Below, piece after piece: positions 1-42,594 of a stretch of DNA of 64,000 nt (its first letter is position 1; each line of letters starts with the position of its first letter). Position numbers and translations under genes: made by a program. The stretch is from IMG/VR virus record IMGVR_UViG_3300031996_000005, positions 552-64,551 of that record, one strand, 5' to 3'. The notes under the pieces were generated by a model, which searched no databases, was not told where the DNA came from, and saw only the letters and a list, made by a program, of their open reading frames with translations. The DNA is from a virus. Taxonomy: Duplodnaviria; Caudoviricetes.

Positions 1-5
1 ACTCA

Positions 6-43
6 GGGGGCGGCCTCCCCCACTAACTCGGGAGACCGCCCCC
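6..43 (+). terminator. GC-rich hairpin downstream of major capsid gene (possible attenuating terminator)
   Basis: GGGGGCGG(6-13)/CCGCCCCC(36-43) plus inner CTCCC/GGGAG; no U-tract. Confidence 0.45.
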
Positions 44-83
44 GGGCGTCGTTCAGGCGCTTACATCCACACTGGAGGCGATA

Positions 84-395
84 ATGGCAACGGCAGAGCA
101 GATCACCGAGCTCCGTGAGTTGATCAGTGACACGGTGGCCCCGTTCCAGTTCACCGCGCCTCAGCTTGGCACCTTCATTGACACGAACGAATCGCTGCGC
201 GCTGCGGCCAGCCTCGTGTGGACGATCAAGGCTTCGAAGCTCGTTGGTCTGGTCGACGTGTCTGAGGGTTCCTCCTCACGCAAGCTCAGCCAGCTGTATC
301 AGCAGGCACTAGCGATGTCCACTTTCTACAGCGATGCTCCCTCGACGGCTTCCCGGGTCGGCAAGTCGGGCACTCGGGCGATTGTTCGCCCGTGA
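84..395 (+). CDS. head-to-tail adaptor
   Basis: GGAGG RBS; 103 aa; position after major capsid; AAA..W..KA motif typical of actinophage adaptors. Confidence 0.65.
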   Translation: MATAEQITELRELISDTVAPFQFTAPQLGTFIDTNESLRAAASLVWTIKASKLVGLVDVSEGSSSRKLSQLYQQALAMSTFYSDAPSTASRVGKSGTRAIVRP

Positions 396-16304: not shown

Positions 16305-17390
16305 TTATGCACTATCGGCTCCCTTGTCGTCCTTTCCCTTGTCATCCTGGTAGTAGTCCATGGGGTCACCGATGCGGTACAGCTGACGCCGCAGGAATGG
16401 CGCATCGCCCTGGTAGAGCTCTGCCTGACACAGCTCGGTAAAGGAGCACATGAATGTGCAAGAGCGATCAGGTACACGCTCGACCCGGTCCATCTCTTCC
16501 CAGTCATACGCGGTCATACGCTCGTACGTGTGGGCCGCCTCGGCCGCCACTCGGTCAAGCATATCGTCATTTTTCTCCATCACGGATCGATGGAAAAAAT
16601 GACTGGTCTGGACCTTGTCCGGCTCCCAGCGATCCGCCTTGAGAACCTTGAGCCAGTCTCGGTATGGGGCGGGGTCCAATTCATGCCTGCGAATGGTGCG
16701 AACAAGCGTCGGATAATCCGTGTCGCACTTCGCCTTGGACAGGCGCTTCCCATCCTTGAGCAGGGCCGGCACAGAGGGGGCCTTGGTGCGCAGGTAGTTC
16801 CAGATGAACCCCTGGGCCTCGATGCCCTCCTGTCGTGCGATCCACAGGTACAGGGCTGACTGGGTGTCGAGCAACCGGAAGCTGAAGTCGGGGAACGTTT
16901 TCATGTTCTTGTGGTCGACTAGCCACAGACCAAAGCGGTCGTGTACTGCCATGTCGATCTTGCCTCGGAGAATGGCATTACCGACGAGTGGCGTCTCAAG
17001 AGTGAATTCGGTTCCTCCTACATCCCAGCCGTGGTGTGGGTCGTCCTTGTTCGCCCCGTAATGCCAGAGATAGGACAGCATCAATTGCTTACAGTCGGTG
17101 GGCAGGTCCCCGAGGGACTCTTGCTCCTCATCAAAGAGCTCGCGGAACTGCTTGGTCAGCTCTTCATGTTTTGCCTTCCAATCGCGACCCGCGTAATACT
17201 CCTCAAGCAGGTAGTGCATCCACGTTCCCATTTTTAAGGGACGAGACCTTTCCACCTTCGACTTGAGCCGCTGAACGTACTTATAGTAGAACTGCCGCGG
17301 GCATCGACGGAACGTCTTAAGCATGGAGTTAGTGACAATCTCTTGCCCCGTCTCCGGATCGATATAGGGAAAGTTCAGCTGAGAGGTCAC
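16305..17390 (-). CDS. Cas4-like PD-(D/E)XK exonuclease
   Basis: SMLKTFRRCPR, GKID...VDHK, C-terminal C..MC.F..LC (Fe-S ligands). Confidence 0.85.
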   Translation of the reverse strand: MTSQLNFPYIDPETGQEIVTNSMLKTFRRCPRQFYYKYVQRLKSKVERSRPLKMGTWMHYLLEEYYAGRDWKAKHEELTKQFRELFDEEQESLGDLPTDCKQLMLSYLWHYGANKDDPHHGWDVGGTEFTLETPLVGNAILRGKIDMAVHDRFGLWLVDHKNMKTFPDFSFRLLDTQSALYLWIARQEGIEAQGFIWNYLRTKAPSVPALLKDGKRLSKAKCDTDYPTLVRTIRRHELDPAPYRDWLKVLKADRWEPDKVQTSHFFHRSVMEKNDDMLDRVAAEAAHTYERMTAYDWEEMDRVERVPDRSCTFMCSFTELCQAELYQGDAPFLRRQLYRIGDPMDYYQDDKGKDDKGADSA

Positions 17391-19900
17391 GCGGCGAGGC
17401 CCTTCCAGTCATAAATCTGCTCGGGGGTGATCTCGGTGGCTCCCCCCCAGCGGGTACCCACCTTCAAATCAGCAATGATCGGTACGTCAAGATTCACGCC
17501 GAACATCCTTTGGAGAGGCAGGTTCTCCATGTTGTTCTTGATGATAGGGAGGGCTACTGACAATTCTTCGTCCGGAATCTCAAAGTTGATGGCGTCGTGC
17601 ACCGTGCCGATCGGATGAGCCGTCATCCCCTGGCGCTTGAACTCCTCGGTGATCCGCACCATGCTCAGCAGCGCCATGTCCGATGCGAAGGACTGAACGG
17701 GTGAGTTGATCGCCTGCCGCTCAGCCTCGGACCGTACCCCCTGATTCGGGCTGTCAACGTCAGGCAGGTGTCGCACCCGACCCAGGGGGCTCTCCACACG
17801 CTTGTACTTGCTCACCAGCTGACGCTGACGGGCGTGCCAGCGGAGCAGCATCGGGAACTGAGTGAAGAAGGCGTCCCGGAAGGCCTTGGATTCCTGCTCG
17901 GTAACCCGCACCCCGTAGTTGCTCCAGGCCGTCTCGATGAACTTGTTGACTCCCATCCCATAGAGGAAGCCGAAGTTCACTGCCTTGGCCTTTTTGCGCT
18001 CGTCCTTGGTGACCCGATCCGCCGGCTTGCCGGTCATCTTCATGGCCATGGTTGTGTGGATGTCCTGACCGGTGGCGTACAGGTGGAGCATGGTCGTCTC
18101 GCGAGCGATGAACGCGGCGACCCTCAGCTCGACTTGCGAATAGTCAGCTTCAACGAAAGAAGATCCGGGAGGCGCCCCGAAGATTCCCCGAACGAAGTCG
18201 TCGCGGGGCACCTGCTGAAGGTTAACTCCACGATTTTGCTTCCGAGAAGTAACCTTATCCGAGTCCGGCTTTCCGCTACTGAGCCGTCCGGTGACAGTGC
18301 CCGTAAGTTTGAACGTCGTATGGATCCGGTCATTTTCGTCCACCTGTTCTGCGTAGGCGCTGAAAAAGGCTGAGTCGTACTTCTGCCACTTCGTTCGCTC
18401 GATGAGTAGCTCAAGGGCTCGGTGGGGGTGCTTGTCCTGCAGGTCGAGCATGATGGCTTCCGCCATGCTCGGCTGCCCGGGTGAGCCATCGTCCGCATCC
18501 TTGCCCCGCGCGAAGACGGGCAGGCCGAGGTGCTCGAAGATGAACCAGCGCGCGAAGTTCGACGGGTTGAAGTTGACCGCCTTGTGACCCCCCTTGTCCT
18601 CGGGCACGAACGTCAGGAGCTCGGCATCGATCGCCTCCAGCTCACGCTTGGCGATGGACCAGTGGGTCATCATCTTTTCGGTGTCGGTCCACACACCCTC
18701 GCGCTCGACCTCGGTGAAGATCTCCGAGCAGGGCATCATGATCCGGGTGAAGATGCGCAGCTTGCGCTTGTTCGCCGGCAGACCGAACTGGCCCTTGAAG
18801 ATCCGGTACAGGCCGAGGGTGTAGAACGTGTCCTTGGCGTTGTATTCCAGGACCTCGCCGAGGGGTGTGTCCACCAGGTCCTTGGTCGAGATGGCCCATG
18901 GCTTCACCCCGAGCAGCTGCTGCGCGAGCGGCTTGAGGCCCTTGGGCCGGTTCTCATCGAGTGTGTGGGCGGCCAGCATCGTGTCGAATGTCAGCGTCCG
19001 CATAACCCCGAACTGGCGCAGCCATCGGCAGTCGAACTTGCCGTTGTGCGCGATCGCCTTGGGCACCGCGTTGAAGTACGGTTGGATCTTGCTGAGCACC
19101 TGTCGCCACTGCCGACGCCATGGTGACCCGGGATGCATCAACGGGACGGCCCAGACGCTCGGGGGCGCGCCCGGATCGTTGGGGGCCAGGGTGACTGCCA
19201 ACGACACGATCGCCGCATCTGGGGCGAACTCGTCGTATCCGTTCGTCTCGATATCGAACGCCATCACCTCAGCCTGCTTGAGTGCCGCGATGAACAGACG
19301 CACGTCCCCCAGGGTGGAGACCGAGTGGTAGGCGAATTCCTCTTCACCATCGACCCCGCGGATCATGCGGTCGAAATACTTGAGGTCGGCTTCGAACCCG
19401 CCCTTCAGCCCCGGATTCCGATAGATCATCGAGGGACTGATGGTGGGCAGCACCCGAGCGTTGCCGCGCTCATACACCACACCGCGGTGCTTCATGATGC
19501 CGGACTTGCCAACGAGGGAGAACATTGCCTCATTGCCGAGAGCAAGGATGAACTTCGGGCCGATGGCCTCGACCTCCCGGTCGAGGTAGGGCCGGCAGGC
19601 CTTCAGGTCGGTCTTGCCTGGGTCGAGATCCCAGGCCCGGCATTTGATGGCCGCGGTAAAGGCGACGTCGGTGGGGTCGACCCCTGCTCGCTCCAGATAC
19701 GTCAGCATCTCCTTCCGGCCCTTGGCTGATAGCGGAGACTTGGTCACCACCATGACGTCAGCTCGGGCGGGCCCCGATGCGGTCACGCAGACGTCCTTGC
19801 CCTGAGCCTGCGTGTGCATCTTGCAGAGCTCGCACTGCGGGTCACGGACGAGCAGCTGGACCTCTGCGTTCATGCGGTCGAGTGGGGTCGCCTCGGTCAT
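17387..19900 (-). CDS. family A DNA polymerase with N-terminal UDG family-4-like domain
   Basis: DIETNG/HNGKFD/YNAKD exonuclease motifs; DYSQVELR, KAVNFGFLYG, VHD polymerase motifs; N-terminal CELC...KC...C. Confidence 0.93.
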   Translation of the reverse strand: MTEATPLDRMNAEVQLLVRDPQCELCKMHTQAQGKDVCVTASGPARADVMVVTKSPLSAKGRKEMLTYLERAGVDPTDVAFTAAIKCRAWDLDPGKTDLKACRPYLDREVEAIGPKFILALGNEAMFSLVGKSGIMKHRGVVYERGNARVLPTISPSMIYRNPGLKGGFEADLKYFDRMIRGVDGEEEFAYHSVSTLGDVRLFIAALKQAEVMAFDIETNGYDEFAPDAAIVSLAVTLAPNDPGAPPSVWAVPLMHPGSPWRRQWRQVLSKIQPYFNAVPKAIAHNGKFDCRWLRQFGVMRTLTFDTMLAAHTLDENRPKGLKPLAQQLLGVKPWAISTKDLVDTPLGEVLEYNAKDTFYTLGLYRIFKGQFGLPANKRKLRIFTRIMMPCSEIFTEVEREGVWTDTEKMMTHWSIAKRELEAIDAELLTFVPEDKGGHKAVNFNPSNFARWFIFEHLGLPVFARGKDADDGSPGQPSMAEAIMLDLQDKHPHRALELLIERTKWQKYDSAFFSAYAEQVDENDRIHTTFKLTGTVTGRLSSGKPDSDKVTSRKQNRGVNLQQVPRDDFVRGIFGAPPGSSFVEADYSQVELRVAAFIARETTMLHLYATGQDIHTTMAMKMTGKPADRVTKDERKKAKAVNFGFLYGMGVNKFIETAWSNYGVRVTEQESKAFRDAFFTQFPMLLRWHARQRQLVSKYKRVESPLGRVRHLPDVDSPNQGVRSEAERQAINSPVQSFASDMALLSMVRITEEFKRQGMTAHPIGTVHDAINFEIPDEELSVALPIIKNNMENLPLQRMFGVNLDVPIIADLKVGTRWGGATEITPEQIYDWKGLAA

Positions 19901-20334
19901 CGCAGATTCACCACCCGAACCCGGGCACGGGTCAGCAGCTGGATACCTTCCACCTTCCGATAGGGCTGCTGGTAGGTGACCGACACCAGGCCGGCGTTAA
20001 TGATCAGCTTGGCGCAGTCGACGCAGGGCATGTGCGTAACGGTCATGTCCGCACCTTCGACCGAGAGACCATGCCGTGCTGCGAAGGCGATGGTGTTGGC
20101 CTCGGCGTGCACCGCGATCTGACAACCCCGTTCCTCGCCTGTGCTGGGGACGTCCCGGGAGTGCTCGCAGTGGGGAAGACCCGCGGGAACCCCGTTGTAG
20201 CCAGAGATGATCACTCGTCCCTGCCGGTGAATCACCGCCCCGACCTGGAGACGGTCACACGTGCCCAGCTTCGCGAACTCGTGGGCCACCGCCATGGCAG
20301 TTTCCTCACGGGTTGGTCGCATCAGCTCGCTCAT
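19897..20334 (-). CDS. dCMP deaminase
   Basis: GYNG, HAEAN, PCVDC zinc-deaminase motifs. Confidence 0.9.
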   Translation of the reverse strand: MSELMRPTREETAMAVAHEFAKLGTCDRLQVGAVIHRQGRVIISGYNGVPAGLPHCEHSRDVPSTGEERGCQIAVHAEANTIAFAARHGLSVEGADMTVTHMPCVDCAKLIINAGLVSVTYQQPYRKVEGIQLLTRARVRVVNLR

Positions 20335-21161
20335 CGCTTGTTCCTTTTGCCCTGACGAACCTGGTTAAGCGCATGGTCATCAGCCTCGAAGGTGTGGAGC
20401 GAGGAGATGATCATGTTCAGTCGGCCGGGTTGCAGGTCGTGTCCCAGCTGGCCGCAGATCCACTGGTTCAGTCGGCCAGCCATGTAGACATCATCTTGGA
20501 AGTGGCGCATGAGATCGCAGGACCGCATGTAGTACCACATGTGGAGACGTCCCCCGCGGATCAGGAAGTGGTATCCAAGGGTGCAAGGCACGCGCTGGCC
20601 GTGCACCGTTCCGGTATCTTCGGGAAACCACACGGGCAGGAACGCTTGTCGAGTCCCGGGTGCTCGGCGAAGCAAGTCAACAACGTCCCCGAGGTCACCG
20701 AGTGCGAAGCGGACTCCCCAGTTGTGCCGGTCTCCGTTGATGCGATGGTGGTTCGGGTCGCTGGGGAAGCCGGCACGCTTCGGCCAGAATCGTTCGGGGT
20801 AGGTGTGGCTGAACTGGACAGCTTGACCATCCTTCTGGAATTTGTGGTCCCGGTTCCCATTCTGGTTGAACGGCCACCAGGCCTCGGAGGGCGGGGGGTT
20901 GAGCGGCACACCGAAGACGCGCTCCTGAAAGTGGTCCTCGGCCCATGGCAGATGAGCGCCCGTCCACTCCGCCAGCGTCTCGGGTGAGGGGGGCAGGCGC
21001 AGCTCGAACGTCACACCCATGAGCTCGCGGGTCTTGACGTCGGTGTCCTGGGACTGCCACTGCCCAACACTCTCAAGAGGCTGGTTGAGGATGTCGACCT
21101 GCATGTCCTCGAACGAGTTTTGGAAGGTGACCATCTCACCATCCGAGCGATACCGCCTCAT
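20331..21161 (-). CDS. thymidylate-synthase-fold enzyme 1 (dCMP hydroxymethylase-like)
   Basis: PCTLGYHFLIR...MRSCDLMRHFQDD, SLHTF; Asp at the E. coli N177-equivalent position. Confidence 0.85.
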   Translation of the reverse strand: MRRYRSDGEMVTFQNSFEDMQVDILNQPLESVGQWQSQDTDVKTRELMGVTFELRLPPSPETLAEWTGAHLPWAEDHFQERVFGVPLNPPPSEAWWPFNQNGNRDHKFQKDGQAVQFSHTYPERFWPKRAGFPSDPNHHRINGDRHNWGVRFALGDLGDVVDLLRRAPGTRQAFLPVWFPEDTGTVHGQRVPCTLGYHFLIRGGRLHMWYYMRSCDLMRHFQDDVYMAGRLNQWICGQLGHDLQPGRLNMIISSLHTFEADDHALNQVRQGKRNKR

Positions 21162-21250
21162 GAAAGAACCTCAAAAAGGATGCTGAACAGCATTGTCAGA
21201 GTGAAGGCGATGCAGATCCAAAAGATCTGAGCGCGCAGTTCTCTACTCAT
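21158..21250 (-). CDS. 30-aa hydrophobic micro-ORF
   Basis: MSRELRAQIFWICIAFTLTMLFSILFEVLS bridges the two TS-like genes with overlaps at both ends. Confidence 0.35.
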   Translation of the reverse strand: MSRELRAQIFWICIAFTLTMLFSILFEVLS

Positions 21251-22250
21251 CGTCGGGTCCGAGCATGTCGTCATCCATGCCGGCCTCATCGGAGAAGGTG
21301 GACATGTCCACGTCCTCGGGGGCTCCCGAGCGACAGTTGCGGAAGATCGGCGAGAAGTCGAGATTCTTAGTCGAAACCGACGCCAGGGGCTTGAACCGCT
21401 TGTTCTGTGAGGCCGCCCCCTTGGACCCCTCACCCCCACCTTCGAAGGGTGCGCCGTATTCGTAACCGAAGACCTCGGTGTGCCAGCGCTTACGGATGCG
21501 TCGGGTCTGGCTGAACTTCATGTCCCCATAGAGGACCCCGTCGTCATCCATCTTCTTAAAGGCATCGAGCCACTTCTGCGAGTAGAACAACCCCGGGGCT
21601 GACGTCTTGGTGTGGGGCTCCGCGGGGTTCTGGAACTGCTCCCGCATCTCGTCGTCGCCGAAGAGATAGGCCATGGACTTGTAGACGTGAAACTGCGGGT
21701 TCTCGTTGTGCCAGACGAACGCCATCTCTTCGGGAGTGACTCCTACACGCTCGCCTACCAGCCGGGCACAGACGTGCGCCACGTTCAGGTCGAGGCCGGC
21801 GATGTAGCCGAGATAGGACGTGCGTGAGTGCAGGGTGATCTGCGGCCGGGGCACGGCCCGATAGCCGATGGCAAGGATGCAGGAGCCCCAGCGTCGCCAG
21901 ACGCGGTCGTTGGACTTCGTGCTCTGCTGGGCGACCAGGTTGGTGCGCATGATGGAGACGCCGCGCTTGCCCTTGGTGAGCTTGGCTTCGCAGCTGGCCA
22001 GCCACTCCTCCAGCGCCACGGGGTTGACGTACTGGCGGACCAGGCTCGACCACCGCAGCTTGTTGACCCAGAGTCGCTGAATGTCGAGGTCATAATCGAA
22101 CGACTCAGCTCGGGCGATGACGTTGTGGAGATGAACGTCCGAGGAGGTCACCAGGTCGAGCTGGTCCGCCGACGAGAAGGAGAGCTTGCGGATGAGGCCT
22201 TCGTGCAGCGCCGTTCCCGTGGGGAAGTTGTAGGCGTGGATCGGAGGCAT
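21243..22250 (-). CDS. divergent thymidylate-synthase-fold enzyme 2
   Basis: SCILAIGYR...HSRTSYLGYIAGLD...QFHVY aligns with TS C..RSxD.....N/D..HxY; start by TGATG overlap at 22250. Confidence 0.6.
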   Translation of the reverse strand: MPPIHAYNFPTGTALHEGLIRKLSFSSADQLDLVTSSDVHLHNVIARAESFDYDLDIQRLWVNKLRWSSLVRQYVNPVALEEWLASCEAKLTKGKRGVSIMRTNLVAQQSTKSNDRVWRRWGSCILAIGYRAVPRPQITLHSRTSYLGYIAGLDLNVAHVCARLVGERVGVTPEEMAFVWHNENPQFHVYKSMAYLFGDDEMREQFQNPAEPHTKTSAPGLFYSQKWLDAFKKMDDDGVLYGDMKFSQTRRIRKRWHTEVFGYEYGAPFEGGGEGSKGAASQNKRFKPLASVSTKNLDFSPIFRNCRSGAPEDVDMSTFSDEAGMDDDMLGPDDE

Positions 22251-22738
22251 CAGTAGCCGCTCGCATTCCGGTCGAAGTTGGTCAGGGACTTGGAGAAGTA
22301 CTCGTGGAACAGGGTCTCCGCATCGAGTCCGGAAAGGATGCAGAACTCGATGAAGAAGTGGAACGCGTCGGCGATCTCCTCGTAAAAAGTAGAGATGCTG
22401 ACGGGTCGCGGCTTGTCCTTCCAACTTTTGCTGCCATCGAGGTGGGCCATCGCCTCGGACAGCTCGCGCACGAGGTGGCCGAACGTCTCGTGGATGCGGG
22501 CCTGTACCTCGCGGACGTGAACGTCTCCCCAGCTCGCCACCTGCGTTGGTACGGACAAACCGGAATCGATCTCCTTATCCCACACCGCACGCATGAAGGC
22601 GCGCTGCTGGGCGAAGATCGTGGCGAGCGTGTCCGGGACCTTGTCCGTCGCGGGGTCAAGGCCGCTGTCGGTGTCGCCAGCCCACCACTCGTCGAAATCA
22701 GGGGTGGTCGCGGTCCAGGGGATCGGGCTGTCGCTCAT
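22250..22738 (-). CDS. all-alpha dNTP pyrophosphohydrolase (dUTPase/dCTPase, MazG-like)
   Basis: ELSEAM...KSWK...EEIADAFHFF motif; start ATG 22738. Confidence 0.8.
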   Translation of the reverse strand: MSDSPIPWTATTPDFDEWWAGDTDSGLDPATDKVPDTLATIFAQQRAFMRAVWDKEIDSGLSVPTQVASWGDVHVREVQARIHETFGHLVRELSEAMAHLDGSKSWKDKPRPVSISTFYEEIADAFHFFIEFCILSGLDAETLFHEYFSKSLTNFDRNASGY

Positions 22739-23265
22739 CGGGTAACGCTCCAGTGGGTGCGGTGAGAGTTGATGTGTGGATGGATGTGGTCGGCAGCGTT
22801 GTGCCTGGTCCAGTCGTAAACCACGATGCCGGCCGAGCTGGCCCAGGACGCCGGCAGAGACGCATAGAGATGCCAGATCGTGTCGATATGCGTCGTCACC
22901 CCGGCCATGTCCCGCTCGTCGCTGACGGCGAGCTTGACGATGTCCAGCGGGGGCAGGCACACGATGGTCAGCGCGCGACGGGCGACATAGCGCCGTAGAT
23001 GTGTCGTGTGGAACTGGGGGTCCATGGTGCCCCGGACGACTGGCCCGTAAATGTACTCGGAGATGAACGGATGCCGGTCGTAGAAATGCACTGGCTCCTC
23101 TGTCCAGTTGCCCACGTCCCGCTCGGCCCAGCGGTAGAGATTCTTGACCGGACCGTTGACCCCATCACTCGCCCGCTCGTGCACGGGAATGCTGGTGTAG
23201 TGCGCGGCGAGCTCGTTGAGCAGGGTGGTCTTCCCCGCCCCGTCTGGCCCTTCGATGATGATCAT
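22735..23265 (-). CDS. dNMP (thymidylate-like) kinase
   Basis: IIEGPDGAGKTT P-loop; YDR..SEYIYG. Confidence 0.85.
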   Translation of the reverse strand: MIIIEGPDGAGKTTLLNELAAHYTSIPVHERASDGVNGPVKNLYRWAERDVGNWTEEPVHFYDRHPFISEYIYGPVVRGTMDPQFHTTHLRRYVARRALTIVCLPPLDIVKLAVSDERDMAGVTTHIDTIWHLYASLPASWASSAGIVVYDWTRHNAADHIHPHINSHRTHWSVTR

Positions 23266-29348: not shown

Positions 29349-29566
29349 TGACTGTTAACAGTGTTGAGCCGTTGCTGCTGACCTGGAATCAGCTCGCTGT
29401 ACTGCGGTTTTTGCGGTTGGTGGGGGAGGCCAGGACGGTGGAGGAGATCGCCTTCGACGCGATGGTCTCGCTGCTGGCTCCGGCCGTGCGTCAGGCGTTG
29501 GTCGTGCTCGCCGGCTACGGCCTGGTGGAAAAGAAGGGTGAGACGACGTGGGGAATCAAGGCTTGA
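29348..29566 (+). CDS. small HTH-like hypothetical protein
   Basis: TGATG overlap; LTWNQLAVL...L..YGLVEK. Confidence 0.5.
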   Translation: MTVNSVEPLLLTWNQLAVLRFLRLVGEARTVEEIAFDAMVSLLAPAVRQALVVLAGYGLVEKKGETTWGIKA

Positions 29567-30762
29567 TTGCAGGGAATGCGATCGTGGGTGTTGTGGCCTA
29601 CGAAGACGATCAGGCCACCGTGTGGCACGGTGATTGCCTGGACAATCTTCGCGAGATGCCCGACAGCTCCGTCGACGCCATCGTCACCGATCCGCCCTAC
29701 GGTCTCGGCTTCATGGGCAAGGCGTGGGACGACCTTCCGCCCGGCCTCCCGTGGGCGCAGGAGTGCCTCCGCGTCCTCAAGCCCGGCGGGCACCTCCTCG
29801 CTTTCGGCGGAACGCGCACCTGGCACCGCCTCGCCGTGGCCGTTGAGGATGCGGGGTTTGAGGTCCGGGACTCCATCGCCTGGCTGTACGGGTCGGGATT
29901 CCCTAAGTCGATGGACGTGTCGAAGGCCATTGACAAGGCCGGGCACCTCTCGGCCCAGTGGGCCGGCTGGGGCACCGCCCTCAAGCCAGCCTTCGAGCCC
30001 ATCGTCGTCGCCCGCAAGCCGCTCGTCGGCACCGTTGCCGCGAACGTCCTGGCGCACGGCACGGGGGCGCTGAACATCGACGGGACGCGGGTGCCTCACG
30101 GCGAGGATGTGGACCTTGAAGCGCGACAGCGTCAGCAGGTCGGTGAGGACAACGGCTGGCGGCTGGCGAAGACGATGACCGGCACCGACATTCCTACCTA
30201 CAAGCCGGGAGGCCGCTGGCCCGCCAACGTCCTCCTCGACGGCGACGCGGCGGCCGAGCTGGACGCGCAGAGCGGGGACCGCCCCGGGATGCGTTCGCAG
30301 AACCTCCACACGACCAAGCCCAAGTTCGAGGGTGGCGTCAACCTGTCGGGGTCCATGACGCAACAGACCGGCCGCGTGGAGGGTTACAACGACCAGGGCG
30401 GCGCCTCCCGCTTCTTCCCCACCTTCCGCTACCAGGCGAAGGCCCCCACGAGGGAGCGGCCGTCCTACATCACCGACGACGGCTCCAAGGTGGCTCACCC
30501 CACCGTGAAGCCCCTCGCCCTCATGCGTTGGTTGGTCCGCCTGGTCACCCCGCCGGGTGGTCTCGTCCTGGACCCGTTCGCGGGCAGCGGGACGACGGTT
30601 GAGGCGGCGATCCTCGAAGGCTTCCGGGTCATCGGCATCGAGCGAGAGGCGGACTATTTGCCGTTGATCGAGGCCCGCATCGCGCGGAACCGGATCACGG
30701 CCGAGGGGCTACCCGCAGTGGCCGACGCGCTAGCTCTGTTCGACTTTGAGGAGCCGGCGTGA
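29563..30762 (+). CDS. DNA methyltransferase (N6-A/N4-C, beta class)
   Basis: GDCL, DPPY, HPTVKP, DPFAGSGTT in beta order; start uncertain (TTG 29563). Confidence 0.9.
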   Translation: MIAGNAIVGVVAYEDDQATVWHGDCLDNLREMPDSSVDAIVTDPPYGLGFMGKAWDDLPPGLPWAQECLRVLKPGGHLLAFGGTRTWHRLAVAVEDAGFEVRDSIAWLYGSGFPKSMDVSKAIDKAGHLSAQWAGWGTALKPAFEPIVVARKPLVGTVAANVLAHGTGALNIDGTRVPHGEDVDLEARQRQQVGEDNGWRLAKTMTGTDIPTYKPGGRWPANVLLDGDAAAELDAQSGDRPGMRSQNLHTTKPKFEGGVNLSGSMTQQTGRVEGYNDQGGASRFFPTFRYQAKAPTRERPSYITDDGSKVAHPTVKPLALMRWLVRLVTPPGGLVLDPFAGSGTTVEAAILEGFRVIGIEREADYLPLIEARIARNRITAEGLPAVADALALFDFEEPA

Positions 30763-38989: not shown

Positions 38990-39220
38990 ATGTCACTCGA
39001 TGAGATATTAGGGCCAATGGACGAGACGCCCGACCTGTCGGATCTGGCCGTTGTCACGCTGAACGCCCAGACCAGCGATGGCCGGCAGTACAGCATGGTG
39101 TGGTCGGCTGAGGAGGGCGCGCTGTCAATCAGCGAGGACGGGTTTTATGTTAGCCCGGCCTGCCAAAAGTGGACCTTCACTTTCATCCAAAAATCGCTCC
39201 CTAAGGAGCAGCCATCATGA
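38990..39220 (+). CDS. hypothetical protein
   Basis: AAGGAAG RBS. Confidence 0.5.
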   Translation: MSLDEILGPMDETPDLSDLAVVTLNAQTSDGRQYSMVWSAEEGALSISEDGFYVSPACQKWTFTFIQKSLPKEQPS

Positions 39221-39706
39221 GGAAGCTAGTTCTGAGCGGGCGCATCATCAAGCGAGGCGGGGTCATCGTGTACAGCGACCTAGTCGGACTGGAGACGCAG
39301 CAGTAGTGGGCTTCTCCGACCGACTCAGGGCTCTCGCGGGCCTGTCTCCCAGGTGCACGTGCGTCGATGAACTGCCCGATGGCAAGCACGACAAGACCTG
39401 TCCCCTGTATGAACCTCCGCGCACGCGGATCCGTCAAGCGTCGTTCGAGCATTCACACCGCGTGTGGGTGGCTCCCGATCCGCCCCGATCTTGGTTCGAA
39501 GGTCAGGGCATTGAGCGAGTGGAGAGGCAGCCCCTGAGGGGTCGTCGATGGTGGTGATTGCAGAGAACTGAATCCACACCTACACTCGCATTTGTTGGCC
39601 CTCGGTTCACCTGGTTCCGCACTTTCCTCGGGGTGCGTCAGTCGTCGTCATAACGCTGAGCCGGTGACCGAGGGCCGACGCATGTCTACCCCGAGGAGGT
39701 GGCACT

Positions 39707-40258
39707 GTGCCGCGTAAGCAACCCCTGTCCCAAAAGCCGGCCGCTGTGCGTGCGCGGATTGCGAAGAGCGCCAAGAACGCGGCCCGAGACGCCGAGATCC
39801 TTTACCAAAAGCCGATCTCTGACTGGGACATGGAAGAGCTGGCCCGGGGGCGCCCGAGGAACAGCGCAGGAAACTTCGCCGGACCGCGGCCGGTCTGGCT
39901 GACGCCGCTCATCATGAAGGAATCGCAGGACCGGCTGCGCATGCTCACTCGCCAAGAGCTCTCGGTCTACGCCGGTGATGCCGTGCGGGTCATGGCCCAG
40001 CTGATGAACGAGGACGGCATCGATGACGACGGAAAGCCCCTAGTTTCACCCTCGGTGCGACTGCAGGCCGCTACCTATGTGATGGACCAGGTCATCGGTA
40101 AGTCGACCACCCCGATCGAGCTCACGGGCAACGTCGTGCTGCAGACTCTTATGGCAGACGTCGTGGTAAACGATGAATCAGGTACTGTTGCTCATCCAGT
40201 AATTGAGGGTACCGTCGTTGAAGTCGATCCCGAGGAAGAAAATAAGGGGGGTGAGTGA
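39707..40258 (+). CDS. terminase small subunit (probable)
   Basis: GAGGAGG RBS; WDMEELARGRPR, RLQAATYVMDQVIGK; first gene of late region. Confidence 0.6.
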   Translation: MPRKQPLSQKPAAVRARIAKSAKNAARDAEILYQKPISDWDMEELARGRPRNSAGNFAGPRPVWLTPLIMKESQDRLRMLTRQELSVYAGDAVRVMAQLMNEDGIDDDGKPLVSPSVRLQAATYVMDQVIGKSTTPIELTGNVVLQTLMADVVVNDESGTVAHPVIEGTVVEVDPEEENKGGE

Positions 40259-40566
40259 TGCCTGAGAACCAGGAAATCACCGAACTGCCAGTCATTCCGG
40301 CGCCGGTTCCCGCTCCGGGCCCTCCGCCCGCGAGCAACGGTCGTCCGACGATTCGACGCGGTGACCAGGGTCAGCATGTTCGGGTCCTGCAGGCTCGCCT
40401 GGCGCGTGGATTCGCGCTGCTGAGCGACCAGCTTGGCGTTCTTGTGGTCGATGGCGATTTCGGTCCACGTACCGAGGCCTGGATACGTGAATTCCAGCTC
40501 CGATCGGGTCACCTGACCACTGATGGCGTCGTGGGCCCTCGCACTTGGAGAGCGCTCGGGCTATGA
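40255..40566 (+). CDS. stand-alone peptidoglycan-binding domain protein
   Basis: IRRGDQG..V..LQ..L...VDGDFGPRT...FQ...DGVVGPRTW. Confidence 0.85.
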   Translation: MMPENQEITELPVIPAPVPAPGPPPASNGRPTIRRGDQGQHVRVLQARLARGFALLSDQLGVLVVDGDFGPRTEAWIREFQLRSGHLTTDGVVGPRTWRALGL

Positions 40567-40582
40567 GCGGCGGAGTCCCCTG

Positions 40583-41416
40583 ATGGCCACCGTCGCGCAG
40601 ATCGTCGCCGAGCTCCGCCGGCGGGGTATCACCGTCCATGAGTGGGCGGGCTGGAATGGTCGAGGCAATGAGGGTGTCGCCCACATTGACGCGAAGGGCG
40701 GCATCATCCACCACACCGGCTCGAACTACGGGTCGGCATATGCGGGGCTAGTGGTGTCAACCCGACCGGATCTGTTCGGGGGGTGCCTGTGCAACTTCGC
40801 CGGGAACGAGAACGGGTCGCTGACCGTCCTGGCGTCCGGGCTCGCTTGGCACGCTGCCCCCTCTACCGGGCCATCGCTCGGTGCGCTCGCTCCCTACGGC
40901 AGGAATCTGAACCGCAACACCGTCGGCTTGGAAATCGTCTACCCCGGTAGCTCGCCAATGAGGAACGCCCAGTACCGGACGGCGCTGGTGTGGGCGAAGA
41001 CGGTCGCCGACCTGTGTGCGGGCGGCAACCTTGAGGCGATTCGGGCGCACGCCGAGGCGAGCTCCTCCGGCAAGTGGGACCCCGGCTACGCCACCGGCAA
41101 GACCATCAACATGACCGCGTTCCGCCGGGATGCCGCCGGCTCCGCCACCCCCGTGATCGCCCCGAGAGGACCCGAGATGCGCGTACTGCTCGCTACGGAC
41201 ACCGGCCGCGTGTACACGGCCACCGACACCGAGGTCGCCTACATCAGCGACCCGGCCGTGGCCACCGCCGCTGTCGCGGCCTGGGGCGAGGTGCAGAAGG
41301 TCACCCAGCGGCAGGTTGATCTGCTGTCGTTCGATGCCAATGCCCGCCGTGCCCGGGGCCGTCTGGAGATCGCTGATCAGGTGGCCGAGCGGTTGAACCC
41401 GGCCGCTGCGCGCTGA
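40583..41416 (+). CDS. endolysin, N-acetylmuramoyl-L-alanine amidase
   Basis: IIHHTG, AWHA, N..TVGLEI, H.E...GKWDPG. Confidence 0.88.
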   Translation: MATVAQIVAELRRRGITVHEWAGWNGRGNEGVAHIDAKGGIIHHTGSNYGSAYAGLVVSTRPDLFGGCLCNFAGNENGSLTVLASGLAWHAAPSTGPSLGALAPYGRNLNRNTVGLEIVYPGSSPMRNAQYRTALVWAKTVADLCAGGNLEAIRAHAEASSSGKWDPGYATGKTINMTAFRRDAAGSATPVIAPRGPEMRVLLATDTGRVYTATDTEVAYISDPAVATAAVAAWGEVQKVTQRQVDLLSFDANARRARGRLEIADQVAERLNPAAAR

Positions 41417-41610
41417 TCCGATGGCGCCGCTGAGAGACAAGAGGCCAGGTGAATTCGGCGGTGTGCCGGGTCGGATTCAGCCCGCCCCACACGAGCCGAC
41501 CAACTCTGAGACGCTGTCCCTGATCTACGCGACCGAATCCGCTCCTCCCATCGCGCCGGGACAGACGATTGATGAGGTTGTTCCCGCGACCAAGAGGATA
41601 AAGAAGTAGC

Positions 41611-42594
41611 GTGACGCAGCCTCCCGCCATTCTCACCTACGGCACGCTCAAGTGGTGGGTTGCGGCGTTCCTCGCAGACACAACGGCGGACACGAACGAC
41701 ATCCCCGACCTGAAGCCGGTCAATGGGTCCGCGTTCATCGTCGCGGATATCGCCGAAGACGGCTTGTTCATTTCCCAGGACACCGACACGCCGCTGACCA
41801 TCCTCAAGACGCGCATGGAGCTGCTCATCGTCGATGGGCACCTGCAGGACCGGGCGGGCAACCGTCAGGTCAAGGTGCTGGCGTGTGACTCGCCCGGCCT
41901 GTCGCAGAAGAACTGGCCTTATGTCCTCTCGTTCGAGCTCGATGACGGGCTGACCTTCGGGTCCTTCCCGTTCTACGTCTATACCGATGAGATCGTTGAC
42001 CTCACACAGCGAGCCCCCTTCGAGCTCGTCAACGGTGAACTCATCACCAAGGGTGACCCGGGTGAGGCGGCCACGGTCACGGTCGGGGAAGTCATCACGG
42101 TCGAACCCGACCAGCCGGCTGATGTTGACAACAGCGGAACGGTCAGCGACGCGGTCTTCAACTTCTACATTCCCAAGGGGCGAGACGGTACCGACGGCCG
42201 GAATGGCGAGAGCTACGGCGGTGGGTTCATCGTCCCACCGGTGGATCCCGGCCAGCCGCTGGAACTGACCGTGCAGAGCCGTTGGGGCATCTCCACGGCC
42301 ACCGGGGAGACGTATTACAACGAAGACGGTGTGGTTGGCGTCGAGGCTGCCCTCGTTATGCCGGATCCCTTCACCGGTAACTTCATCCTGTTCAAGCCGG
42401 GCGAGCCCGTTCCCGATATCGGTGAGGCAAAGGGAGAGCAGGAGGGGGTCATTCGCTGGAATGGTTCCGCCTGGAAGTTCAACGGTGTGACGGTCACCGC
42501 CCGACCGACCGCAGGGTATGAGTCTTACCGCTTCAAGGGGGGCACTGTCGCACCAACCTTTGGGGCAACAGGAGATTCCTGGGAAAGCGACTAG
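41611..42594 (+). CDS. virion structural/fibre adaptor protein with short collagen-like segment
   Basis: KGDPGEAATVTVG...FNFYIPKGRDG; C-terminal WNGSAW and RPT..GDSW. Confidence 0.6.
   Translation: MTQPPAILTYGTLKWWVAAFLADTTADTNDIPDLKPVNGSAFIVADIAEDGLFISQDTDTPLTILKTRMELLIVDGHLQDRAGNRQVKVLACDSPGLSQKNWPYVLSFELDDGLTFGSFPFYVYTDEIVDLTQRAPFELVNGELITKGDPGEAATVTVGEVITVEPDQPADVDNSGTVSDAVFNFYIPKGRDGTDGRNGESYGGGFIVPPVDPGQPLELTVQSRWGISTATGETYYNEDGVVGVEAALVMPDPFTGNFILFKPGEPVPDIGEAKGEQEGVIRWNGSAWKFNGVTVTARPTAGYESYRFKGGTVAPTFGATGDSWESD

Follow-up and report, generated by a model that had tools for sequence, protein, structure and literature searches.

A divergent family of predicted thymidylate synthase-fold proteins encoded beside thymidylate synthase homologues in phages

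Identification of a Divergent Thymidylate Synthase-Fold Protein

The stretch of DNA analysed in this study, hereafter the window, comprises 64,000 nucleotides (nt) of IMG/VR virus record IMGVR_UViG_3300031996_000005 (positions 552 to 64,551), which is nearly all of that record; its full length is 64,551 bp, it carries direct terminal repeats, and its completeness is rated at 100%. A gene on the minus strand encodes a 335-amino-acid (aa) protein, here called X, that shows a thymidylate synthase (TS) fold, strong conservation at the positions of TS catalytic residues, and a one-way linkage to a TS homologue encoded immediately downstream, here called TS1, within a gene neighbourhood whose association with modified cytosine has already been published. 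The reading that we favour most is that X is an active, folate-independent enzyme that would act on a cytosine deoxynucleotide before replication, as part of a cytosine-replacement cassette, and we put its chances at about even.

The AlphaFold2 model of X, built with 39 homologues, reached a mean predicted local distance difference test score (pLDDT) of 88.8 and a predicted template modelling score (pTM) of 0.87. When this model was searched against the PDB with Foldseek, all 42 matches listed at E ≤ 0.001 were TS-fold enzymes (E down to 4e-5), including MilA, human and bacterial ThyA, the deoxycytidine monophosphate (dCMP) hydroxymethylase of phage T4, and the dCMP hydroxylase of phage HY126, with 9iqu near the top. 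VIA-align, a comparison independent of Foldseek, was run against 48,161 chains and retrieved seven at Z 8.5–14.1, all of TS fold, the next chain, an unrelated one, being at Z 4.0. The closest structure was the riboflavin/flavin adenine dinucleotide (FAD)-dependent dCMP monooxygenase 9iqc (Z 14.1, root-mean-square deviation 3.8, 187 aligned residues, model residues 2–200), and a further lead from the ESM Atlas was a cluster with 37% PF00303 members (score 0.90). A second, highly divergent TS-fold protein had been proposed at this locus in an earlier reading of the DNA (the original prediction), which named structure prediction as the check; the result was a TS fold, with only TS-fold matches by both Foldseek and VIA-align.

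Active-Site Register and Gene Features

At the sequence level, neither X nor any of ten distant relatives had a Pfam family at E ≤ 1, no chain among the PDB sequences matched X at E ≤ 10 with either the single protein (phmmer) or a profile, and the X-family profile found no match among single TS sequences. The register of the active site was obtained by aligning the X-family profile to that of the neighbouring TS homologues, with Escherichia coli ThyA as the head sequence. These profile–profile alignments were weak (E 0.024 for the close X family and 0.0073 for the wide X family), and the register was identical in both, placing Cys124 of X on Cys146 of ThyA, Arg143 on Arg166, Tyr146 on Asp169, Asp154 on Asn177, His188 on His207, and Tyr190 on Tyr209. 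The resulting features of X are as follows.

21243..22250, minus strand: X, 335-aa TS-fold protein, PHROG 13667 (stop codon included)
21666..22250, minus strand: TS-like core of X, residues ~1–195 (VIA-align model range 2..200 against 9iqc; hhalign register residues 123–192)
21879..21881, minus strand: Cys124, aligned with the ThyA nucleophile Cys146 (profile–profile register and conservation)
21822..21824, minus strand: Arg143, aligned with the phosphate-binding Arg166 of ThyA (profile–profile register and conservation)
21813..21815, minus strand: Tyr146, where ThyA has its folate-binding Asp169 (profile–profile register and conservation)
21789..21791, minus strand: Asp154, at the base-specificity position (Asn177 in ThyA, Asp in dCMP-specific enzymes; profile–profile register and conservation)
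21351..21665, minus strand: conserved helical C-terminal extension, residues ~196–300, with an Arg-rich helix (alignment, model, conservation)
21246..21350, minus strand: low-confidence C-terminal tail with an acidic stretch at its end (sequence, alignment, model)

The gene itself is real at these coordinates, as had been predicted, given its overlapping start, its 335-aa product, its large family of homologues and the invariant residues described below. Its ATG at 22250 overlaps the stop codon of the upstream MazG-like gene (TGATG, with the A in common), its own stop codon lies at 21243–21245, and the ATG of TS1 (21161) comes 81 nt further on. A longer, TTG-started frame is unnecessary; the homologues begin at the same Met-Pro-Pro or slightly later.

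In TS-fold enzymes, Asn or Asp at the position of ThyA Asn177 chooses between deoxyuridine monophosphate (dUMP) and dCMP (PMC13326640, PMC8670742), and by this test X, with Asp154, is of the cytosine type. The folate side of the pocket appears different. Based on the published list of ThyA pocket residues (PMC13326640, PMC8670742), no counterpart of the W80, W83 and Y94 segment or of the C-terminal cofactor closure of ThyA was found in X by alignment and secondary structure. The segment bearing W80, W83 and Y94 is probably missing, since the Cys of X comes 22 residues earlier than that of ThyA, though the loop just before it is longer. At the other end of the protein, an extension of ~140 aa had been predicted; 145 residues do follow Tyr190, but the excess over ThyA, which has 55 residues after Tyr209, is only ~90 aa. 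About 110 aa of this tail (to about residue 300) are conserved, confidently modelled and mostly helical, and the last ~35 aa are acidic and modelled with low confidence.

Size and Conservation of the X Family

Homologues of X number at least 461 proteins at E ≤ 1e-3 in a word-indexed search, and an exhaustive HMMER search of 1.84 billion representatives yielded at least 257 family clusters at 50% identity. Relatives were found in 85 phage records, from Gordonia, Mycobacterium, Streptomyces, Microbacterium and Curtobacterium phages, and all are annotated as hypothetical; they include gp47 of Mycobacterium phage Muddy and gp75 of Streptomyces phage Zuko. The sole PHROG for X, 13667, carries no assigned function, and no paper describing the family was found in the literature.

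Conservation was assessed on 185 distinct X-family sequences, drawn from these searches as well as from 180 loci translated in six frames, among which identity drops to ~20–25%. Arg143 is present in all 185, and Cys124, Gly122, Tyr74 and Asp154 are each present in 184; one sequence has Glu in place of Asp154. Arg251, in the Arg-rich C-terminal helix, is found in 180 sequences, Trp180 in 176 and Tyr146 in 162, where the remainder carry Phe, Ser, Leu or Met and Asp falls outside the five commonest residues. The catalytic Cys, the phosphate-binding Arg and the cytosine-type Asp (21789–21791) thus sit where the original prediction had placed them, by register and by conservation alike, and X indeed has R-T-S-Y where ThyA has R-S-C-D, the predicted replacement of RSxD by RTSY. 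The altered cofactor site also held up, with Tyr at the Asp169 equivalent in most members, no TS match in Pfam, and a different C-terminus. The terminal HxY fared otherwise as a conserved motif: His188 occurs in 148 of the 185 sequences, and position 190, Tyr in the window protein, is Phe in 143 with Tyr outside the five commonest residues, so that HxY is largely particular to the window sequence.

Eight arginines are invariant in the close X family, three of them within one C-terminal helix. Together with the conservation of Arg251, this would suit a protein that acts on a polynucleotide, phage DNA or RNA, through arginines that bind the backbone. We regard this as very improbable, the least probable of the readings weighed here, as the gene of X stands among enzymes of the nucleotide pool (pyrophosphohydrolase, kinase, deaminase) and Pfam detects no DNA-binding domain in X; no TS-fold enzyme that acts on polymers is known.

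Gene Neighbourhood and the Partner Enzyme TS1

On the minus strand of the window, the gene order is SNF2 helicase, P-loop dNMP-kinase-like protein, MazG/dUTPase_2-type protein, X, TS1, dCMP-family deaminase, DNA polymerase I, and PD-(D/E)XK nuclease. The neighbours that make up the conserved cassette are listed below.

22735..23265, minus strand: P-loop dNMP/thymidylate-kinase-like protein (Pfam, PHROGs)
22250..22738, minus strand: MazG/dUTPase_2-type nucleotide pyrophosphohydrolase, whose stop overlaps the start of X (Pfam, PHROGs)
20331..21161, minus strand: TS1, TS homologue (PF00303) that carries Asp at the N177 position and lacks a ThyA-type C-terminus, always directly downstream of X
19897..20334, minus strand: dCMP-family deaminase (Pfam)
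17387..19900, minus strand: DNA polymerase I (PolA), the last conserved member of the cassette

For comparison of neighbourhoods, IMG/VR loci were fetched with sequence patterns, and those with enough flanking DNA were judged. The gene order of the window recurs in Muddy, in Zuko, and in 52 of the 52 loci fetched by close-family patterns. The same order was observed in 43 further loci from two distant X subfamilies, where PolA identity is sometimes as low as 20–30% and neither the helicase nor the nuclease is present. X is directly upstream of a TS homologue in these 54 and 43 loci, that is, in every one with enough flanking DNA, and the core shared across the ~97 loci is (kinase)-(MazG)-X-Asp177 TS homologue-(dCMP-family deaminase)-PolA. 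The slot of X is also occupied in Clostridium phage CPD4, by gp74 (E 1.5e-16 against the wide X profile), and in Pseudomonas phage PMBT14 and Serratia phage Serbin, by proteins too diverged for the X profiles. The Cys, Arg and Asp motifs of X are present in all three slot proteins, and among the viral structures of BFVD the PMBT14 slot protein ranks third for X (E 1.8e-7, template modelling score 0.62 on the target). In PP693299.1 (Yersinia phage vB_YenM_P744) and MW202455.1, distant X-like proteins from the branch of PMBT14 carry the label 'pyrimidine hmase synthase', apparently an automated call.

TS1 scores above the Pfam threshold for TS and is modelled with a TS fold, its nearest structures being MilA and ThyA. 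It keeps Cys146, Arg166, Ser167, Asp169 and His207 (ThyA numbering), has Thr at position 147, and ends ~20 residues past the His207 equivalent. Judged by its sequence, with Asp at the N177 position, TS1 is a cytosine-type TS homologue. An insertion of ~65 residues (~87–152), rich in Trp, Pro and His, carries many invariant residues across 26 homologues; it is located where ThyA has its folate-binding small domain and is modelled by AlphaFold at pLDDT below 50.

A neighbourhood of this kind has been described before. MetaGPA work reported that a neighbourhood of an Asp177 TS, a dCMP-family deaminase, a PRA-PH/MazG protein and PolA was enriched among metavirome contigs bearing modified cytosine (PMC8670742; bioRxiv 10.1101/2024.12.05.627091). 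Five of seven Asp177 TS homologues tested made 5-methyl-dCMP in vivo, one deaminase encoded in cis turned 5-methyl-deoxycytidine triphosphate (5-methyl-dCTP) into deoxythymidine triphosphate (dTTP), and Xp12 and PaMx74 were named as cultured phages in which 5-methylcytosine (5mC) replaces cytosine (bioRxiv 10.1101/2024.12.05.627091). The four components of the published Xp12/PaMx74-type cassette all occur in the window, as an operon-like block encoded by a single strand. The window differs from the cassette as published in the additional presence of X and in TS1, which is truncated and bears the large conserved insertion, whereas the TS of PaMx74 is full length. The published cassette studies were based on Pfam and would not have detected X, a protein without a Pfam domain. 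No report of base composition was found in the literature for the DNA of Muddy, GTE2, PMBT14, Serbin or CPD4.

Some smaller features of the X–TS1 junction were recorded. Two short inverted repeats, both with a T-run after them, lie in the 81-nt gap between the two genes (21162–21242, minus strand), and a terminator scan called no site in this gap. No such gap separates the corresponding genes of Muddy and PMBT14, which abut or overlap. No fused form was found among proteins of 588–2000 aa, which is weak evidence.

Loci without X

The linkage between X and TS1 runs in one direction. Among 80 IMG/VR loci fetched by TS1-type patterns, X was directly upstream in 53 and no X-profile match was obtained in 27, one of which probably has a very divergent X upstream (L120). 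The loci without X are mostly on contigs of 100–430 kb, with unrelated genes upstream, such as a metallophosphoesterase or a methyltransferase, and their TS homologues have Asp177 and the same C-terminal truncation as TS1. In jumbo phages (L143–L181, e.g., L144, L151 and L158), neither a deaminase nor PolA nor a detectable X is adjacent to the TS1-type gene, and a calcineurin-like metallophosphoesterase is often encoded immediately upstream of it. The wide X profile matched nothing anywhere in five jumbo-phage records, four of them 99–100% complete; as a control, it found X in the genome of the window and in CPD4 and missed PMBT14, so the absence of X from the jumbo-phage records is suggestive, not proven. 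In PaMx74 (39165–42126), the order is MazG-thyA-cd, with no gene between, followed by dihydrofolate reductase (DHFR); its ThyA is of 298 aa, full length, and carries Asp at the N177 position. The X profiles gave no match to any of seven neighbouring proteins. A PaMx74 protein of equal length to X, gp55, was considered as its counterpart and proved unrelated.

X thus always occurs with a TS1-type enzyme, and TS1-type enzymes also occur without X. This one-way co-occurrence is better accommodated if X performs an accessory step, one that draws on the TS1 reaction or supplies it, rather than being an obligate subunit. The original prediction had suggested that X may use a donor other than folate on dCMP or on the product of TS1, and the co-occurrence is in line with the second of these options. 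An obligate X:TS1 heterodimer is made less likely by the truncated Asp177 enzymes without detectable X. A role of X in replacing the need for DHFR was also considered and set aside, as no clear pattern was observed: DHFR is absent in five X-bearing genomes, present in PaMx74, and absent in four of the five jumbo phages without X.

A different explanation is that X is a non-catalytic TS-fold paralogue, which would regulate by sensing nucleotides, serve as a scaffold, or pair with TS1 as a subunit; its acidic tail might tether the enzymes of nucleotide synthesis to the replisome. TS enzymes such as ThyA are obligate dimers with arginines shared across the interface, which speaks for such a partner, as do the consistent presence of an adjacent TS homologue, the absence of a ThyA-type C-terminal closure from TS1, and the Arg-rich helix and acidic tail of X, which are of a type used in protein contacts. 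However, retention of the Cys in all but one sequence at such low identity is hard to explain without chemistry, and the obligate-subunit form is further countered by the TS1-type enzymes of the five jumbo-phage records, where the profile, which misses the most divergent branch, detects no X. We therefore hold a non-catalytic role to be unlikely, though it deserves more weight than the action on a polynucleotide discussed above.

Proposed Activity of X

For an active enzyme on a cytosine deoxynucleotide, we infer the substrate, the covalent catalysis, the co-substrate and the product from the features described above. Cys124 would act as the nucleophile and add to C6 of the pyrimidine, Arg143 would bind the phosphate of a mononucleotide, and Asp154 would select cytosine over uracil. 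The substrate could be dCMP or, more likely, a 5-substituted dCMP supplied by the adjacent TS1, and X would work within a cassette that also comprises the nucleoside triphosphate (NTP) pyrophosphohydrolase, the TS homologue, the deaminase, the kinase and the polymerase. A more specific and more doubtful proposal, which we nevertheless rank somewhat above the non-catalytic one, is that X runs a new folate-independent reaction on the C5-substituted dCMP from TS1, in which addition of the Cys at C6 would restore an exocyclic-methylene-type intermediate that is then reduced or captured by a further group.

Several observations weigh against the assignment of X to an active cytosine-nucleotide enzyme. 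Its TS homology is not significant by itself at the sequence level, and both the absence of a folate pocket and the part played by the C-terminal arginines are proposed from alignment and secondary structure. The conserved ligand-binding residues would likewise suit a sensor or a regulator. Most of the loci belong to one broad phage lineage with a shared replication module, and part of the synteny may reflect inheritance rather than functional coupling. In addition, PaMx74, reported to have full replacement of C by 5mC, has no X, and TS1-type enzymes occur in jumbo phages without detectable X; X would therefore be dispensable for at least some cytosine replacement.

Comparison with Known Thymidylate Synthase-Fold Enzymes

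The enzymes of the PF00303 family, such as E. coli ThyA, T4 gp42 and MilA, share the fold of X (Z 8.5–11.5) and align with it in one register at the nucleophilic Cys, the Arg166-type phosphate arginine and the position of base specificity, and T4 gp42 and MilA also have the Asp found at that position in X (PMC13326640). However, X has no sequence match to this family in Pfam or the PDB. In comparison with ThyA, it has Tyr at the D169 equivalent, Phe at the Tyr209 equivalent in most members, ~22 fewer residues before the Cys, and a C-terminus made up of the ~110-aa helical, Arg-rich extension and the acidic tail.

The best structural match to X is found among the 5-hydroxy-dCMP (5hodCMP) synthases (RB69 gp48, DLP3 gp80 and HY126; 9iqc and 9iqu), flavin-binding TS homologues with a compact TS fold and a non-folate chemistry on dCMP (PMC13326640), to which X is likened by its predicted structure. 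X might accordingly be a flavin-dependent pyrimidine C5-hydroxylase of the RB69 gp48 or HY126 type, producing 5-hydroxy-dCMP for later glycosylation, a possibility favoured by 9iqc as the nearest solved structure, by 9iqu among the top Foldseek matches, and by the known enzymes being short TS homologues too (PMC13326640). On the other hand, the published diagnostic of these synthases is D169N (PMC13326640), whereas X has Tyr at this position and TS1 keeps Asp. No sequence relation to X is detectable, and a partial survey of ten other window open reading frames with Pfam identified no arabinose or glycosyl genes, glycosyltransferases included. For these reasons, we consider a flavin hydroxylase improbable, less so than an enzyme acting on a polynucleotide and more so than a non-catalytic paralogue. 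The link to arabinosyl-hydroxycytosine that the original prediction had raised is sound insofar as TS-homologue 5hodCMP synthases are described in the literature (PMC13326640); its transfer to X does not follow, in view of the missing D169N and of the lack of a glycosyltransferase among the ten open reading frames surveyed. The Xp12/PaMx74-like neighbourhood suits X better than an arabinosyl-hydroxycytosine system.

Implications and Further Observations

The TS fold underlies nearly all known pre-replicative pyrimidine modifications of phages, namely 5-hydroxymethylcytosine, 5mC, 5-hydroxymethyluracil and, recently, 5-hydroxycytosine. The X family, as a further TS-fold branch of at least 257 clusters, has an intact catalytic core and lacks the folate signature, and it is carried by cultured, easily handled phages, including Muddy, a phage in therapeutic use against Mycobacterium abscessus. 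Any replacement or alteration of cytosine by these phages would bear on their resistance to restriction and other DNA-targeting defences, on the behaviour of their DNA in sequencing and cloning, and on the range of enzymes available to detect or write modified cytosines. Should the proposed new reaction on C5-substituted dCMP be correct, phages like Muddy, GTE2, Zuko, PMBT14 and CPD4 would hold an undescribed cytosine derivative or a route to one, and X would be a step missed by the Pfam-based metavirome studies.

Two further features of the window concern its DNA polymerase and a possible additional modification. The DNA polymerase I of the window is of 837 aa; PolA clusters with fused uracil-DNA glycosylase (UDG) domains, either inactive (N4-like) or active (SPO1/SP15-like), have been described (PMC13697223). 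A DNA N6/N4 methyltransferase of 404 aa (PF01555, E 6e-33) is encoded on the plus strand at 29548–30762, and would add a second, post-replicative DNA modification.

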